A stretch of 10,856 bases of DNA, taken from positions 1 through 10,856 of the IMG/VR virus record IMGVR_UViG_3300045988_151163; one strand, 5' to 3'. Position 1 is the first letter of the stretch; every line of letters starts with the position of its first letter. Below, piece by piece: positions 6,329-9,151 of the stretch. The position numbers and the translations under genes were made by a program. The DNA comes from a virus. Below the pieces are notes generated by a model. The model worked only from the letters and a program-made list of their open reading frames with translations. It made no database searches and was not told where the DNA came from.

Positions 6329-6353
6329 TGGGAGTCTTAATAATAAGACTCCC
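6329..6353. terminator. bidirectional hairpin terminator at a convergent strand switch
   Basis: GGGAGTCTTA-ataa-TAAGACTCCC is a perfect 10-bp inverted repeat. It is flanked by an A/T run on one side and ATTTTAATTTT on the other. The stop codon of the minus-strand gene at 6337 lies inside the stem. Confidence 0.65.
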
Positions 6354-6660
6354 ATTTTAATTTTCTAAATATCTCATTTGTAATGTAAATAATTTCGTAG
6401 CCATAAGTAGCTACAAGGTCAGCTAATAGCTCTTCTTGGTCTACAGTTAGGTTAACATTATAAGAGAACATTGCCGCATGAGTTATCTCATGGCAAAGGA
6501 CTTTTCTTAGAAAATTACCTTTTATTTGATTACTAATGTATATGGTCTTAGTATCGTCATCACACATGGCGATACTAAGAGAACCATCACTTCTATAAAG
6601 AACAAAAGAATTAGAAGGAACAAATACTATATACCATGTTTCTCCATTTATTGTAAACAA
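6337..6660 (-). CDS. ImmA/IrrE-like HExxH metallopeptidase-domain protein; possibly a C-terminal extension of the upstream gene
   Basis: Motif TIYISNQIKGNFLRKVLCHEITHAAM fits the ImmA/IrrE (COG2856/DUF955) pattern iyiN....r..tlaHElgH. The frame opens immediately after the TAA of the preceding gene and is in the same frame. There is no ATG before residue 32 and no SD. Confidence 0.45.
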   Translation of the reverse strand: MFTINGETWYIVFVPSNSFVLYRSDGSLSIAMCDDDTKTIYISNQIKGNFLRKVLCHEITHAAMFSYNVNLTVDQEELLADLVATYGYEIIYITNEIFRKLKWESYY

Positions 6661-7215
6661 TTAAACAATCTTACTCATAAGAGTAGTCATTTTTTGTTTA
6701 AGTAATTGTTTTTCTTCAGGAGAAGCATCTGCAATCATTTCTGTAATATCAGAAGATAACTCTTTCATATAGTTTTCTAATTCTTTTAATTGATAATTTT
6801 TATCTTGATGCATTTCTTTAGATTCCATGTATGAACGTCTGCTCATAGGACTTCTGCCTTCGCGGCTGTCACGTCCCATAGACTCCATTCCTCTAGACAT
6901 ATGGTTTCCATCCACCGGCTGTCCGCCATAATACATTCTATTCCACTTATCTCTGTCCATATCTCTATAATCTGGAGAGATTCTTCCCTCATAACCATAA
7001 TATGGTTCTGAATAGTAATGCTGTCTAGACTTTTGACGCTCACTTTCATCCATTGCTTTTGTTATAGAGCAATAGTACATTGCTTCTTCAAGGTCTTTGA
7101 TCATATCCACAACCTCTCCAAGCTCTTTTGCATCAACATTCTCTAAGTTGCCTAATTGAGTTTGAACTTGAGCAACTAAGGTATCTTTCATACTCTTGTA
7201 TTTATCCATTTTCAT
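6661..7215 (-). CDS. Met/Tyr/Arg/Ser-rich protein with coiled-coil termini and a disordered centre (184 aa)
   Basis: AAGGAGGG sits ahead of ATGAAAATG. About 14 Tyr (YY doublets: YYSEPYYGYEGR, RMYYGG) and about 18 Met. An RS/RD-rich low-complexity core (SMGRDSREGRSPMSRRSYMES) lies between helical, heptad-like N- and C-terminal segments. Confidence 0.6.
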   Translation of the reverse strand: MKMDKYKSMKDTLVAQVQTQLGNLENVDAKELGEVVDMIKDLEEAMYYCSITKAMDESERQKSRQHYYSEPYYGYEGRISPDYRDMDRDKWNRMYYGGQPVDGNHMSRGMESMGRDSREGRSPMSRRSYMESKEMHQDKNYQLKELENYMKELSSDITEMIADASPEEKQLLKQKMTTLMSKIV

Positions 7216-7223
7216 AACCCTCC

Positions 7224-7646
7224 TTAAGCAACTCTTTCTACTATAAGATTAGCATTTATTACAGAAATAGCCTGAGAAGAAATGTTTGTTACTCCAATAG
7301 TAGAGCAACACCCCGCAGGCACATCAAGATAAATACTTGCTCCTACATTAAAATACTCACTTACTGCGGCTGGAGTTACTGTCATAGTTGTTGTACCTAC
7401 AGGCTCGCCATCTACAGTTAAAGCAACAGAAATTGCTCCTGCAGTGCCACCTGTTGGTACTGCTATGTTACCACCGAATGTAGCTTTGAATCTAGCTCTA
7501 CACTGCGTAGTTGTGAGACCGCGCAATTTAGTTAAACCAGAACCTTCTCTGTGAATAATGGAGCAGTTACCAGGAACAGCAGTATCCGTGAATACCACAT
7601 TTTGACTTGCTGCAACAGATTGAGCAGCATTAGCTGTAATTTCCAT
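7224..7646 (-). CDS. BclA C-terminal-domain-like (TNF/C1q-like jelly-roll) protein, no collagen repeats
   Basis: ATG at 7646 with AGGAGG 9 nt upstream; the track's GTG at 7652 is 2 codons further up. The C-terminus ...VTNISSQAISVINANLIVERVA parallels B. anthracis BclA ...LALGTSASIIIEKVA. LTVDGEPVGTTTMTV parallels LTIQVNGVPVPGTGSS. Gly/Thr/Ala/Val-rich beta-type sequence with 5 Cys, including a CC pair. Confidence 0.7.
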   Translation of the reverse strand: MEITANAAQSVAASQNVVFTDTAVPGNCSIIHREGSGLTKLRGLTTTQCRARFKATFGGNIAVPTGGTAGAISVALTVDGEPVGTTTMTVTPAAVSEYFNVGASIYLDVPAGCCSTIGVTNISSQAISVINANLIVERVA

Positions 7647-7659
7647 AGTCACTTACCTC

Positions 7660-8454
7660 CTATACAGTACATCCGCATCCAGCGTTGCAGCATGCTCTAT
7701 ATCCATATATTCCTGTATAAGGATTTGGAACTTGATATGATGGAACTGGAGCTGGGCTAAGTGCATTTACAAGATATGTATTCTGTGCAGCCTGTGAAGC
7801 AGCAAATTTAAGTGACTGATTCTCAGCTGTAAGAGTAGCAATCTTGTCTTGTGTTAAGAAATCTAAGATACTTCTTGTGTTAGCATCTTGATTAGCTATA
7901 ATATCTCTTGAAGAATCAGCAATGGCTTGTCTTGTTTGACAGCTCTGATCTGCAATATTATAGTTTAAGTTAGCAAACTGAGTTGCGCTCTCGTATCTCT
8001 GATCACAGCAGCATTGAGCGATCTGTGTACCAATACCAGTAAGTTGGCTAGTAATAGCATTTGTATTCTGCATATTAGCTATTGTGTCTGCGTTTACTGC
8101 TGCAGTCACATCAGCTTGAGCGCCCTGAATAGCATTACCTAATGAATTGAACCCATTAAGCATACCTGTGTTCATAGCATAGAATCCATCACAAATACCA
8201 TTGTTTACGCTATCAATTTTTCTTTCGATGTTAGCAAAATCTGTTGTAAGGATATAACCATCAGTAATACCAGAAGCTGTTGCGTCTTTACCACCACCAA
8301 ATAATCCATTACCCCAGTTATCTCCACCGGCAAGAATTAAGATGAAAAGAACAATCCACCAGGAATCTCCTCCCCATCCATTGTTTCTATCGTTTCCGCC
8401 TGTTGCGGCTGCGATATCGGCTAATGAATAGCCATTAGTGTTTCCATTGAACAT
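7660..8454 (-). CDS. membrane protein: YjcZ/tiny-TM-like Gly-rich N-terminus + helical N/Q/A/T-rich domain + Cys-cluster C-terminus (264 aa)
   Basis: AGGAGG lies 7 nt before the ATG. GWGGDSWWIVLFILILAGGDNWGNGLFGGG resembles the Bacillus sporulation tiny-TM family (G-rich followed by a FALIVVLFILLIIVG-type helix). The middle has a heptad-like N/I/Q/A pattern and a CCC triplet. The protein ends YRACCNAGCGCTV. Confidence 0.65.
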   Translation of the reverse strand: MFNGNTNGYSLADIAAATGGNDRNNGWGGDSWWIVLFILILAGGDNWGNGLFGGGKDATASGITDGYILTTDFANIERKIDSVNNGICDGFYAMNTGMLNGFNSLGNAIQGAQADVTAAVNADTIANMQNTNAITSQLTGIGTQIAQCCCDQRYESATQFANLNYNIADQSCQTRQAIADSSRDIIANQDANTRSILDFLTQDKIATLTAENQSLKFAASQAAQNTYLVNALSPAPVPSYQVPNPYTGIYGYRACCNAGCGCTV

Positions 8455-8479
8455 ATGAATGTCCTCCTTTTAATATATA

Positions 8480-8731
8480 TTATTTAACGCCCATTTTGTT
8501 TTTAAAGGCGGTAAATTCTTGATCAAAATTGACACCCTTTTGATTAGATAAATTCTTAGCAATCTGCATTAACTGGAATGAATTTCCCATTTGTGCTAAT
8601 TGCATTAAATTTTGTCCCATAGGAGTCTGTCCCATTCTTTCTTGGAGGATATTCATAGTAATTTGTTGCGGATTTGCTCCACCCTGAATTGCTTGAATAA
8701 TTTGCATTGGATTAAAACCTTGTCCTTGCAT
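8480..8731 (-). CDS. Gln/Met-rich small protein (83 aa), unknown function
   Basis: Weak SD (GAAAGGAAG). Composition about 19% Q and 12% M. Repeated MQ/QxxQ pattern. No Cys. No recognised domain. Confidence 0.5.
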   Translation of the reverse strand: MQGQGFNPMQIIQAIQGGANPQQITMNILQERMGQTPMGQNLMQLAQMGNSFQLMQIAKNLSNQKGVNFDQEFTAFKNKMGVK

Positions 8732-8752
8732 TCTCTCTTCTTCCTTTCTTAT

Positions 8753-9151
8753 TTAAAAATTAAATCCTTCTTTACTTTGCGGTTGTGGGGTTACTTGTGG
8801 CTGTGTAGCTTGAGAAATAGCTTCTTTAACTTTAGCCATAGTTTCCTCAAATTCCTGTTTAGTAACGAAATCACCGACTGCCGCGGTCTTCTCAATAGGC
8901 ACCCAATCATATTCTTCTAATTTAACATTACCATTTAAGTCAATTTGTTTGGTATAAATTTTTTTATTTGCCATATCTGGAAAAACAAAAATACTTCCAT
9001 CAAAATCAACTTGAGCTGCTCTAACTTCATCTACTGATGAAACAAATCTTCCTTTCAAGAGATTCTGTTGCGGCATCTCATATGGAACCTGTCTAGGTGC
9101 ATATGACTGTTGCGGCTGATTTGGATAATAATATGCATTTGGTTGAAACAT
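8753..9151 (-). CDS. small protein with Q/P/Y-rich termini flanking a globular core (132 aa)
   Basis: AAAGGAGGA lies 6 nt before the ATG. N-terminus MFQPNAYYYPNQPQQSYAPRQVPYEMPQQ and C-terminus QATQPQVTPQPQSKEGFNF are low-complexity. The core is KGRFVSSVDEVRAAQVDFDGSIFVFPDMANKKIY.... It is the first gene of the operon. Confidence 0.6.
   Translation of the reverse strand: MFQPNAYYYPNQPQQSYAPRQVPYEMPQQNLLKGRFVSSVDEVRAAQVDFDGSIFVFPDMANKKIYTKQIDLNGNVKLEEYDWVPIEKTAAVGDFVTKQEFEETMAKVKEAISQATQPQVTPQPQSKEGFNF

Follow-up and report, generated by a model that had tools for sequence, protein, structure and literature searches.

The described proteins closest in fold to the product at the centre of this analysis are exosporium proteins: the BclA C-terminal domain and the F-BclA tip domain (PDB 1WCK, 9H38), which belong to the Bacillus exosporium hair and the F-ENA tip fibrillum, and ExsFA/BxpB (PDB 7R1M, 8D02), which forms stand-alone TNF-like trimers in the basal layer of the exosporium. 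The N-terminal peptide of BclA docks on the BxpB/ExsF trimer, an interaction described as very stable in PMC10470788. Viral TNF-like knobs (PRD1 P5, the Sf6 tail-needle knob, tail-fibre domains of cyanophages A-1(L)/A4, and giant-virus collagen-like fibres) are fused to a shaft and vary with the host. Comparable in other respects are TNF-superfamily ligands such as EDA-A1 and BAFF, morons and lysogenic-conversion cassettes at the lysin-attR end of Firmicutes prophages, and minimal zincins (ImmA/IrrE Peptidase_M78, SprT-like, DUF6782, and minigluzincins).

We analysed a six-gene cassette within a window of viral DNA, the whole stretch of 10,856 nucleotides, which an earlier note had read as a spore-surface operon of a large phage. 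The operon, the jelly-roll fold of its fourth product, the HExxH motif of its sixth and the assignment to a large phage all stood, but no support was found for its inferred role in decorating or remodelling the spore surface of the host. All six ORFs that the note had called are present, at its coordinates and on the minus strand, and their order is kept in related loci:

9329–9346, minus strand: intrinsic terminator, a 7-bp G+C-rich stem followed by CTTTTTTATT; ends the tail-fibre-like gene upstream, insulating the cassette
9152–9328, minus strand: promoter and leader region of the cassette (∼175 nt), with box CTGTTAAATT at 9249–9258 and a TATATCTAT element at ∼9172–9180
8753–9151, minus strand: G1, 132 aa, core member of the cassette
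8480–8731, minus strand: G2, 83 aa
7660–8454, minus strand: G3, 264 aa, core member
7224–7646 (ORF 7224–7652), minus strand: G4, 140 aa, core member
6661–7209 (ORF 6661–7215), minus strand: G5, 182 aa
6337–6660, minus strand: G6, 107 aa, with a TTG start that abuts the G5 stop
6328–6355, no single strand: bidirectional terminator, a 12-bp stem with T-runs on both strands, common to the convergent RuvC gene

The start of G4 was placed at the ATG at 7646 because its homologues are all ∼140 aa and begin MEIT, and that of G5 at 7209 in line with gene calls on L051 and L052, which on a contig of 93% identity make the protein 182 aa long. The genes are tightly packed and SD-led as had been described, with GGAGG-type Shine-Dalgarno sequences before G1, G3, G4, and G5 and GAAAGGAAG before G2, but the intergenic gaps measure 0–25 nt rather than 5–25 nt. 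Both terminators claimed for the operon were recovered as hairpins by a scan that returned 6 terminator-like sites against 1.3 expected; the one at 9329–9346 is retained in near-identical contigs, and the one at 6328–6355 overlaps the G6 stop codon. In the leader, the TATATCTAT element lies just upstream of the Shine-Dalgarno sequence, every Type A locus inspected has a TATATA-type element 20–30 nt ahead of the ribosome-binding site, and several loci that have otherwise diverged share the box CTGTTAAATT, 106–120 nt 5′ of the G1 ATG; a simple sigma-70 scan of 9152–9328 gave no match. The neighbours are as previously reported, with Pfam matches on near-identical contigs to the DnaE C-terminus, a nucleotide kinase, NrdD, dUTPase, and RuvC, and the gene immediately upstream is tail-fibre-like. 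Because it has its own terminators, a promoter region with a conserved box, a G+C content (0.37–0.42) above that of its flanks (0.23–0.33), and an inverted orientation relative to the tail genes in L004–L006, the cassette acts as a self-contained unit.

The run of six genes is clearly not due to chance, as the order G1-(G2)-G3-G4-(G5-G6) recurs in all related loci examined that have enough flank. Carriers are 130–175 kb phage contigs with a layout like that of the window and 33–45 kb siphophage contigs. The core genes G1, G3, and G4 are present in the lytic Butyrivibrio fibrisolvens phage Ceridwen and in a prophage of Vescimonas fastidiosa MM35, and the cassette also occurs in CPD1, a C. perfringens phage isolated as lytic. 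Butyrivibrio is described as a non-spore-forming genus. The type strain of V. coprocola, the sister species of V. fastidiosa, has likewise been reported as non-spore-forming (PMC11334427). In the 33–45 kb siphophage contigs, endolysin and holin genes are followed by the cassette and then by an oppositely oriented integrase gene, and in V. fastidiosa MM35 the cassette is the final prophage block, lying after holin and amidase genes and before host ldh, miaB, and mutL. Like morons, it combines a promoter and terminators of its own with a differing G+C content and a position past the lysis genes at the prophage end; unlike them, it comprises four to seven genes in strictly conserved order, is also found in lytic and very large phages, and matches no known conversion function (toxin or exclusion protein). 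No PADLOC defence model matched it. Between big phages, G4, G6, and G3 are 45–76% identical as against 30–49% for RuvC, while NrdD (27–73%) and dUTPase (26–69%) have lower minima with ranges that overlap that of the cassette. No conservation of the adjacent fibre gene could be detected between these phages, and the cassette itself, to judge from such comparisons, appears not to be a host-range determinant.

The product of 7224–7646 had been likened to the BclA C-terminal domain, and at the level of fold this was borne out: G4 is a stand-alone TNF/C1q/BclA-CTD-like jelly roll (model pLDDT 87, with agreement from a fold search) whose top structural neighbours are all trimeric. The likeness ends there, as searches of Pfam and PDB sequences gave no sequence-profile relation to BclA or ExsF, and identity is only 15–17% to the BclA domains and 9–10% to ExsFA/BxpB, with which no homology is detectable. 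G4 lacks the collagen-like stalk and N-terminal targeting region of BclA, showing neither an exosporium-targeting N-terminus nor, among 150 listed representatives of 837, any collagen repeats or fusions. It is instead a phage protein, encoded also by phages of non-spore-formers, with an invariant vicinal cysteine pair (C113-C114) and the C-terminus NANLIVERVA, and is among the most conserved proteins of the cassette.

In essentially every G4-bearing locus G3 is followed by G4; elsewhere another small, beta-rich protein with Cys residues takes that place. G3 matches phrog_16490 (E 1.6e-30) and has more than 7,900 homologue clusters, none of them named. Its N-terminal peptide MFN..YSLADIAAAT is conserved. 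The YjcZ-like N-terminus once suggested found no NCBIfam match at E≤1. The Gly/Trp-flanked hydrophobic segment WWIVLFILILAG is the only hydrophobic span among the six proteins; across the family this uncharged span has a median of 18 aa (mean Kyte-Doolittle ∼2.0 in a 15-residue window), and K/R are nearly absent on both flanks. A Pro-rich stretch (PxPVPxYxVPNPY) is also present, and the two cysteine clusters noted earlier are there among nine Cys, as CCC at 148–150 and CCNAGCGC at 255–262; the CCC and the C-terminal GCGC are invariant among homologues. The AF2 model, though poor (pLDDT 51), shows helix throughout 72–232 and a short helix at 32–41. The family extends to phages of C. perfringens, Butyrivibrio, and Bacteroides and to crAss-like phages, and all signature motifs are present in the Bacteroides uniformis phage and crAss-like members.

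Residue counts agreed with the earlier descriptions of the remaining products as well as of G3. G1, whose N-terminus is 22% Q, 19% P, and 16% Y, also has a C-terminal helix and, between the two, a small domain that is conserved (LKGRxVSSxxEVRAxxIDFDGS..FPD.AN..IYTK), but no hydrophobic segment anywhere; it matches phrog_21718 (E 3e-5), has homologues in C. perfringens phages, and by iterated HMM search occurs in 40 loci, always upstream of G3. G2 (19% Q, 11% M) is a Q/M/N-rich helical protein (NPMQ...NPQQ...ARN...G.DFDKEF) found in 24 loci, and in the small siphophages its position is taken by a 66–83 aa family of similar composition (c11, phrog_22984). G5, found in 29 loci, has helical ends around a disordered centre rich in R (16%), S (13%), Y (12%), G (11%), M (11%), and D; its proposed likeness to CotG/CotC is compositional. 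Neither G2 nor G5 matched a family in Pfam, PHROG, or NCBIfam. R/Y/D/S/G-rich analogues of G5 occur together with G3 in Bacteroides and crAss-like phages and, as c18 (hhalign probability 52%), in small siphophages. Wherever both are present, G5 and G6 abut or share 1–4 nt, an arrangement from which they are predicted to be translationally coupled. G6 does carry the HExxH motif claimed for it, as HEITH at residue 57 (motif region KKVLCHEITHAAMFSYN...EQEEL), and this motif and the downstream EQEE are kept in 18 aligned sequences. It matches phrog_1233 (E 2e-14), but the suggested ImmA/IrrE likeness is sub-threshold (Peptidase_M78, 0.04), as are DUF6782 (7.7e-4) and SprT-like (4e-3), all Pfam scores falling under the curated cut-offs. 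With minimal zincins G6 shares the HExxH, an acidic EQEE ∼17 residues on, a beta-strand-rich N-terminus before the HExxH, and a length of ∼105 aa, and we regard it as a putative protease of minimal zincin-like type; unlike in ImmA/ImmR, there is no adjacent HTH repressor partner, G6 being paired with the disordered G5 instead. As the note had stated, none of the six proteins matches a canonical virion, lysis, or replication family, and all families that do match are of “unknown function”.

We tentatively read these products as a complex that infected or lysogenic cells make and that associates with their envelope, with G3 as stalk, G4 as head, and G5 accompanied by the protease G6. The core products would most likely assemble at the cytoplasmic membrane. 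G3 could provide a single hydrophobic anchor, assigned to it because it alone has a hydrophobic span, and a long oligomeric coiled-coil stalk, suggested by its helical 72–232 region and invariant CCC and GCGC; its cysteine clusters may serve in cross-linking or metal binding. Because the TNF/C1q fold is trimeric in all top structural neighbours and G4 so regularly follows G3, a G4 trimer may cap this stalk or dock the conserved terminal peptide of G3, much as BxpB/ExsF docks that of BclA, although G4 sits in a phage cassette and not a mother-cell regulon. The arrangement would resemble a TNF ligand split in two, with the Cys-rich coiled-coil stalk and the head encoded by separate genes and the head lacking an export signal. 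G1 and G2 would be small partners. A protease theme is suggested because the cassette of big phages carries G6, that of small phages a putative Cys-His-Asp enzyme (c12), and that of the Bacteroides phage a “PolyVal metallopeptidase”, and G5 and G6 may form a substrate-protease pair for maturation or release, held in fixed proportion by translational coupling. Because the G3 span is short and without flanking positive charges, membrane insertion and topology stay predicted, and because no signal peptide was found on G4 or the four other proteins besides G3, a surface-exposed complex would require an unexplained export route.

The main rival, also the alternative raised in the earlier note and still a live one if rather unlikely, is a virion fibre or decoration: a G3 trimer shaft with Cys/metal clusters on the threefold axis would carry a detachable G4 knob as an accessory adhesin on tail or head, with G1, G2, G5, and G6 as assembly chaperones and maturation protease. 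The cassette is co-oriented with, and directly 3′ of, large tail/baseplate genes in the window's relatives, and a neighbour of the Bacteroides phage cassette matches a “virion structural protein” PHROG (E 1e-8). However, temperate relatives place it past the lysis genes, behind a terminator, at the prophage end, which is not a usual site for structural genes; viral knob genes likewise differ from the cassette in that it often lies outside the structural operon, and it has its own promoter and can oppose the tail genes in orientation. The high conservation of G4, beside hypervariable adjacent fibre genes, and its lack of fusion to a shaft among the 150 listed representatives of 837 also depart from viral knobs, and the 18-residue hydrophobic span carried by G3 also counts against a fibre. 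G3 homologues have been annotated by others as “viral fiber” or “spike protein”, but the latter label probably reflects only coiled-coil similarity to HA2 (E 0.5–0.9). Counting against a membrane complex, the G3 homologue of the crAss-like phage cr52_1 sits among tail and virion genes, and the G4-like fold is common at viral fibre tips, which favours a virion role.

A lysis accessory, in which G3 would be a one-TMD holin, holin regulator, or i-spanin-like membrane protein with an N-terminal anchor, a coiled coil, and intermolecular Cys links while the other products tune the timing or completeness of envelope disruption, is improbable. The architecture of G3 does parallel that of T4 holin T and lambda Rz, a holin gene (phrog_13712, E 4e-28) lies directly 5′ of the cassette (of G1 where detected) in eight big-phage loci, as holin and endolysin genes do in the Vescimonas prophage and the small phages, the second gene upstream of the cr52_1 G3 homologue encodes a “LysB/FtsL-like lysis regulatory protein”, and every cassette has a peptidase within it or nearby. 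This adjacency is weak evidence, however, because in Gram-positive phages the end of the late operon always adjoins lysis genes, and the window itself has no adjacent holin. Monoderm hosts do not need a spanin, the outer-membrane lipoprotein partner is absent, none of the six proteins has a lysis match in PHROG or Pfam, and a TNF-like trimer with three low-complexity proteins is unprecedented in lysis systems.

The spore-surface module, in which mother-cell expression in a sporulating host would bring G4 (as a BclA-CTD/ExsF counterpart), the ExsY/CotY-like cysteine-rich G3, and the CotG/CotC-like G5 into the coat or exosporium, was rejected as very improbable and is largely refuted for the family as a whole: the exosporium-like fold of G4, the coat-like mixture of a TNF-like trimer, a Cys-rich partner, and Q-, Y-, and R/S-rich low-complexity proteins, the many Clostridia among the likely hosts, and one sigmaK-like match (AC-N15-CATAAAATA, 9248–9274, given as 140 nt upstream of G1; one of two in the window) are outweighed by the core cassette in phages of genera described as non-spore-forming, the G3 family in Bacteroides and crAss-like phages, the lack of detectable exosporium or coat families in Pfam, NCBIfam, and PDB, the missing collagen repeats and targeting N-terminus, a TNF-like fold widespread in viruses unrelated to spores, and the promoter check itself, as 93%-identical relatives have lost the sigmaK-like match, nine other loci lack it, and no sigmaE-like match exists.

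Because the same cassette is found in many gut phages, including those of non-spore-formers, it is an accessory module of phages, as yet uncharacterised, rather than equipment for the spore surface, and is best explained as an autonomous, horizontally shared (“moron-like”) cassette of gut-Clostridia phages. Its presence in the lytic-isolated Ceridwen and CPD1 means that a purely lysogenic-conversion role cannot be general. The envelope-associated complex that we favour would act at the level of the envelope late in infection or in lysogeny, the best fit to the genomic position of the cassette, and may serve in superinfection exclusion, surface remodelling, or lysis control.

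The operon proposed in the earlier note is present: six co-oriented minus-strand ORFs, named G1 to G6 in order of transcription, occupy 6337-9151, with intergenic gaps of 0-25 nt and GGAGG-type ribosome-binding sites before G1 and before G3 to G5. The genes and the terminators found by a terminator scan are as follows.

8753-9151, minus strand: G1, 132 aa
8480-8731, minus strand: G2, 83 aa
7660-8454, minus strand: G3, 264 aa
7224-7646, minus strand: G4, 140 aa, from the ATG giving MEIT, the start common to all homologues
6661-7209, minus strand: G5, 182 aa, per gene calls on near-identical contigs
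6337-6660, minus strand: G6, 107 aa, with a TTG start immediately past the G5 stop
9329-9346: hairpin terminator upstream of the cassette
6328-6355, both strands: 12-bp bidirectional terminator

The scan found six terminator-like sites in the window against 1.3 expected. All of the compositional descriptions that the note gave for the cassette proteins held, and so did the neighbours it named (DnaE, here its C-terminus, NrdD, dUTPase and RuvC). These lie on the plus strand together with a nucleotide kinase, all identified from Pfam hits on contigs that share 93% identity with the window over its whole length. No Rfam family or tRNA was detected in the window, and when its full sequence was compared to phage records by megablast, an NrdD segment alone gave a match.

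The 188-aa kinase between DnaE and NrdD (1364-1930) matches Guanylate_kin (PF00625) on near-identical contigs, and its positional equivalent in more distant relatives matches Thymidylate_kin. NrdD is a single intact 718-aa ORF in the window (1981-4137); in several related phages the gene is split into two or three parts with an HNH endonuclease gene among them (loci L004/L006, 982-4357; L010/L011, 14472-17428), a layout suggestive of insertion of a homing endonuclease, intron or intein. The minus-strand ORFs of 335 and 83 aa that lie 5' of the cassette (9347-10856) are one intact 522-aa tail-fibre-like ORF in L052, a 146-kb contig 93% identical to the window. In the window this gene switches frame (-3 to -2) near 9667-9679, close to an A-run, and runs past the window end; the switch would mark a pseudogene, an error of sequencing or assembly, or a slippery site.

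None of the six cassette proteins reached a curated threshold in Pfam or NCBIfam, and scans of the six proteins and both upstream ORFs against Pfam, NCBIfam, PHROG and PADLOC gave solely PHROGs of "unknown function" and sub-threshold zincin matches; the PADLOC models matched none of the six at E≤1. G1 (phrog_21718, E 3e-5), G3 (phrog_16490, E 1.6e-30), G4 (phrog_20016, E 1e-51) and G6 (phrog_1233, E 2e-14) all fall in PHROG families of unassigned function.

Iterated HMM searches were run over 47 related loci, and the order G1-(G2)-G3-G4-(G5-G6) was found in every locus with enough flank. Phage contigs of 130-175 kb (Type A) are arranged exactly as in the window: large baseplate and fibre genes, sometimes a holin (phrog_13712, E 4e-28), and then the cassette, which converges on RuvC-dUTPase-NrdD-kinase-DnaE. 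In loci L004-L006 the orientation of the cassette is opposite to that of the tail genes. Siphophage contigs of 33-45 kb (Type B) begin with an endolysin (NlpC/P60 plus PG_binding_1) and a holin (Phage_holin_4_1), followed by a small sigma-70 region-4-like gene, the protein family c12 (a putative Cys-His-Asp enzyme), G1, c11 (a Q/M-rich analogue of G2), G3, G4, c18 (an R/S/Y/G/D-rich analogue of G5) and c19, past which an integrase lies in the opposite orientation. Comparison by hhalign found nothing between G2 and c11 or between G6 and c19, and a merely suggestive 52% probability between G5 and c18.

Carriers are mostly phages of Clostridia. In the lytic Butyrivibrio fibrisolvens phage Ceridwen, G1, G3 and G4 lie downstream of the lysin gene, and Butyrivibrio is classically non-spore-forming. 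A prophage of Vescimonas fastidiosa MM35 (861-kb replicon pMM35_01) has the full Type B set as its last block, past holin and amidase and right before host ldh, miaB, mutL and mutS. For its sister species V. coprocola, the type strain is reported to be non-spore-forming (PMC11334427). Clostridium perfringens phage CPD1 combines a member of the G3 family with G1 and G2. The G3 homologue of Bacteroides uniformis phage C3_41T2LP (HMM E 4e-41) bears the label "viral fiber", and the fifth gene downstream of it is labelled "PolyVal metallopeptidase"; several crAss-like phages have a G3 homologue amid tail genes, labelled "spike protein". The G3 and G4 homologue clusters come from gut metagenomes of several mammals (human, lemur, rodent and ruminant among those seen). 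Because a scan of bacterial genomes matched phage-sized MAG contigs only, its taxon labels are unreliable for assigning hosts.

In the CPD1, Bacteroides and crAss-like lineages, the gene past G3 encodes a different small, beta-rich, Cys-containing protein (L048, 5475-5852, CPD1 gene 040; L050, 5575-6117; L049, 5600-6034), to which G4 showed no homology by hhalign, and an Arg/Tyr/Asp-rich disordered protein is again found nearby. The cysteine clusters of these post-G3 proteins include CNRRCNCCNRR in CPD1 and KCCGIF in the Bacteroides phage. This arrangement suggests that G3 is always paired with a Cys-bearing partner, predicted to be a beta-sandwich. In crAss-like cr52_1 (L049), CDSs in 2754-6643, including the G3 homologue (4662-5585), have in-frame stops under table 11, consistent with stop-codon reassignment in that lineage.

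The cassette is an autonomous, moron-like accessory unit with its own promoter and terminator, deviating G+C and variable placement. It is flanked by terminators on both sides and preceded by a 175-nt upstream region, where a box, CTGYTAAATT (9249-9258, minus strand, 106-120 nt upstream of the G1 start), is conserved in otherwise diverged big-phage loci (L003, 86-95; L010, 9194-9203; L013, 2738-2747; L046, 6285-6294; near-variants in L007, L014, L034 and L038), and a TATATA-type element stands right before the G1 ribosome-binding site. The box is possibly the binding site of a cassette-specific regulator; its candidacy as a general late-promoter motif was rejected, as no copies of it precede other operons. 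Four loci carry, in the interval from the lysis genes to the Type B cassette, a gene for a 70-aa sigma-70 region-4-like protein (Pfam E 0.0055, sub-threshold; L001, 6578-6799; L043, 5751-5963; L047, 3986-4198; L054, ∼11560-11780) that is followed by a terminator; the protein is a candidate for a dedicated cassette regulator. G+C is 0.37-0.42 over G3 and G4 as compared to 0.23-0.33 in the flanks (window 6250-9250), which would fit either horizontal acquisition or the abundance of Gly and Ala in the cassette proteins, and the genomes of carriers range from siphophage size to 130-175 kb.

The check for mother-cell sigma promoters upstream of G1, recommended in the earlier note, yielded a single sigmaK-like match, AC-N15-CATAAAATA (9248-9274, minus strand, 140 nt upstream of G1), one of two such matches in the whole window, and no sigmaE-like match. 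In the 93%-identical contigs the AC of this site is AT and the length of its T-run spacer varies, and none of nine other loci has such a match; the site is probably fortuitous and was rejected as evidence.

The prediction that G4 would adopt the fold of the BclA C-terminal domain was borne out by modelling. A high-confidence model (pLDDT 87, pTM 0.81) predicts a TNF/C1q-like jelly-roll of ∼135 residues whose nearest solved structures are BclA-type domains: Foldseek against the PDB placed the F-BclA tip domain, ExsFA, BxpB and BclA-CTD on top (E 6e-7 to 3e-5), followed by TNF ligands, C1q domains and cyanophage tail-fibre domains. The relation to BclA is confined to fold. Identity to BclA-type domains is 15-17%, Pfam gave no BclA-related match at E≤1, a phmmer search of the PDB with the single sequence found neither BclA nor ExsF, and a profile of 20 diverse family sequences found nothing among PDB sequences at E≤10. 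Whereas BclA has collagen-like GXX repeats and an N-terminal exosporium-targeting region, G4 has neither, and the fold fills its 140 aa. The family numbers more than 5,800 homologue clusters at 90% identity, some members already carrying the automated-pipeline label "BclA protein"; G4 was a separate ORF in all loci examined, and none of 150 listed representatives (of 837 clusters; 77-196 aa, mostly ∼140) is fused to another domain. A search of predicted viral structures showed the fold to be common in two settings: in stand-alone proteins of gut sipho-, myo- and podoviruses, and at the distal end of collagen-like fibres of tailed phages and giant viruses, where it forms the knob. The TNF-like fold is a general trimeric head of viruses, bacteria and animals, and a "BclA-like" fold match in a phage is not evidence of spore biology.

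G3 is the single hydrophobic protein of the cassette, which suggests a membrane-anchored assembly; a hydrophobic segment or signal peptide was found in none of G1, G2, G4, G5 and G6. None of the more than 7,900 G3 homologue clusters (90% identity) is named. Conserved features are an N-terminal peptide (MFN..YSLADIAAAT), a hydrophobic span flanked by Gly/Trp, SQxAQ, PxPVPxY, an invariant CCC and a GCGC at the C-terminal end; G3 has nine cysteines in total. The span, free of charged residues, has a median length of 18 aa, and both of its flanks are nearly devoid of K/R. An AF2 model from 33 sequences, unreliable at pLDDT 51, is helical over 72-232 with a short helix at 32-41, and sequence and profile searches of the PDB gave coiled-coil noise only, HA2 included. 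The supposed resemblance of the G3 N-terminus to the YjcZ-like family did not survive: a scan at E≤1 of NCBIfam, to which we take the TIGRFAM tiny_TM_bacill/YjcZ model to belong, gave one unrelated match (E 0.51), and the likeness amounts to a short hydrophobic stretch with Gly flanks. A double-glycine leader at the N-terminus was also considered and rejected, as the motif is lost in distant homologues.

The HExxH claimed for G6 is present and conserved as HEITH, within a gluzincin-like arrangement (KKVLCHExxHAAMFSYN...EQEEL) that scores below the Pfam cut-offs of Peptidase_M78 (14.1 vs 22 bits), DUF6782 (19.2 vs 27) and SprT-like (17.4 vs 25.6). Wherever G5 and G6 occur together, their reading frames are directly adjacent or share 1-4 nt, which points to coupled translation. 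In ImmA/IrrE systems the substrate is an adjoining HTH repressor (ImmR/DdrO-type), whereas G6 is coupled to the disordered, R/S/Y-rich G5, which has no HTH match. G5 had been likened to CotG/CotC-type coat proteins, but the similarity is in composition alone, its Pfam, NCBIfam, PHROG and PDB matches being noise. The first protein of the Type B cassette, c12 (117-161 aa, phrog_3754; L001, 7014-7391; L054, 11939-12352; 11 other loci), has invariant D-C...H...D residues (NPNP..VGDCxVRA ... GHVVAV.DG ... D.WDS), suggesting a putative papain/transglutaminase-like Cys-His-Asp enzyme; it matched nothing in Pfam or among PDB sequences and is absent from the RefSeq table shown for the Vescimonas record. 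A role for c12 as peptidase of a G3 double-glycine leader was rejected, as a C39 match is absent. PDB sequence and profile searches with the G1, G5, G6 and c12 families gave nothing significant.

The reading that we favour, albeit tentatively, is that the cassette products assemble into a membrane complex in the infected or lysogenic cell. G3 would be a membrane-anchored, cysteine-rich coiled-coil stalk, G4 a TNF-type trimer capping it or docking a conserved G3 terminal peptide, and G5 and G6 a coupled substrate-protease pair, and the complex could serve in superinfection exclusion, surface remodelling or lysis control. The proposed G3-G4 pair would be analogous to a TNF ligand split over two genes, and the docking would parallel the holding of the BclA N-terminal peptide by BxpB/ExsF (PMC10470788).

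The main rival, which we consider less likely, is that the cassette encodes a virion fibre and knob with their chaperones, as would fit the presence of tail genes nearby in big and crAss-like phages and the prevalence of TNF-like folds at fibre tips. However, the cassette lies past the lysis genes and behind a terminator, is invertible, has its own promoter and is the last block before host DNA in the prophage, and because of this we regard it as an accessory cassette rather than part of the virion operon. The knob of a phage receptor-binding fibre is joined covalently to its shaft and varies with host, whereas G4 is separate and conserved: between divergent big phages, identity is 49-76% for G4, 48-71% for G6 and 45-65% for G3 as compared to 30-49% for RuvC, and the adjoining fibre gene has no detectable similarity. 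NrdD (27-73%) and dUTPase (26-69%) have lower minima, with ranges overlapping those of G3, G4 and G6. As judged from these alignments, the pattern is the opposite of that expected for a host-range-determining receptor-binding knob.

A dedicated lysis role is considerably less probable and draws mostly on adjacency to holins. G3 does fit an i-spanin, which has an N-terminal TMD and a periplasmic coiled coil with cysteines (span median 18 aa, helices at 72-232, nine Cys), but a two-component spanin has an outer-membrane lipoprotein (the o-spanin) and a diderm host, whereas none of the five other cassette proteins has a lipobox-type N-terminus or a signal peptide, and most carriers infect Clostridia. 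Slightly more doubtful still is a phage self-assembly kit in which the G4 trimer, the G3 coiled coil, protease-matured low-complexity proteins (Gln-, Tyr- and Arg-rich) and a dedicated protease build a cysteine-cross-linked proteinaceous structure, a viral counterpart of the ExsY-ExsF-BclA logic of the exosporium or of polyhedrin-type occlusion matrices. If this were true, infected cells or progeny virions would be coated or tethered by the structure and shielded in gut transit, and a single ancient building block would have been put to two uses, in the exosporium TNF-like proteins and in the phage family. Least probable by far is the inference of the earlier note that the cassette decorates or remodels the host spore surface: its one positive point is the G4 fold ranking together with the compositional parallels, and against it stand carriers in phages of genera described as non-spore-forming (Butyrivibrio, Vescimonas), G3 family members in Bacteroides and crAss-like phages, the lack of any detected sequence relation to coat or exosporium families, the absence of collagen repeats and a targeting region, and the promoter results. 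The remaining probability falls to some other function.

The families of the cassette are already known, as unnamed PHROGs. As far as the searched literature shows, the unit itself is undescribed in its conserved order, wide distribution, moron-like behavior and G3 signature, and the search found no virion proteomics or functional data on these genes for Ceridwen, C. perfringens phages or Bacteroides uniformis phages. We class the unit as a phage accessory cassette centred on a TNF-like trimer. It is abundant, spanning phage lineages from 35-kb temperate siphophages to contigs of ∼150 kb, with its G3 family reaching crAss-like phages, and yet every member is annotated "hypothetical". Two cultured carriers, the Butyrivibrio phage Ceridwen and the Vescimonas fastidiosa MM35 prophage, make the cassette experimentally tractable now, and a conserved multi-gene unit at the lysin-attR moron slot likely bears on how gut phages interact with the envelopes of their hosts.
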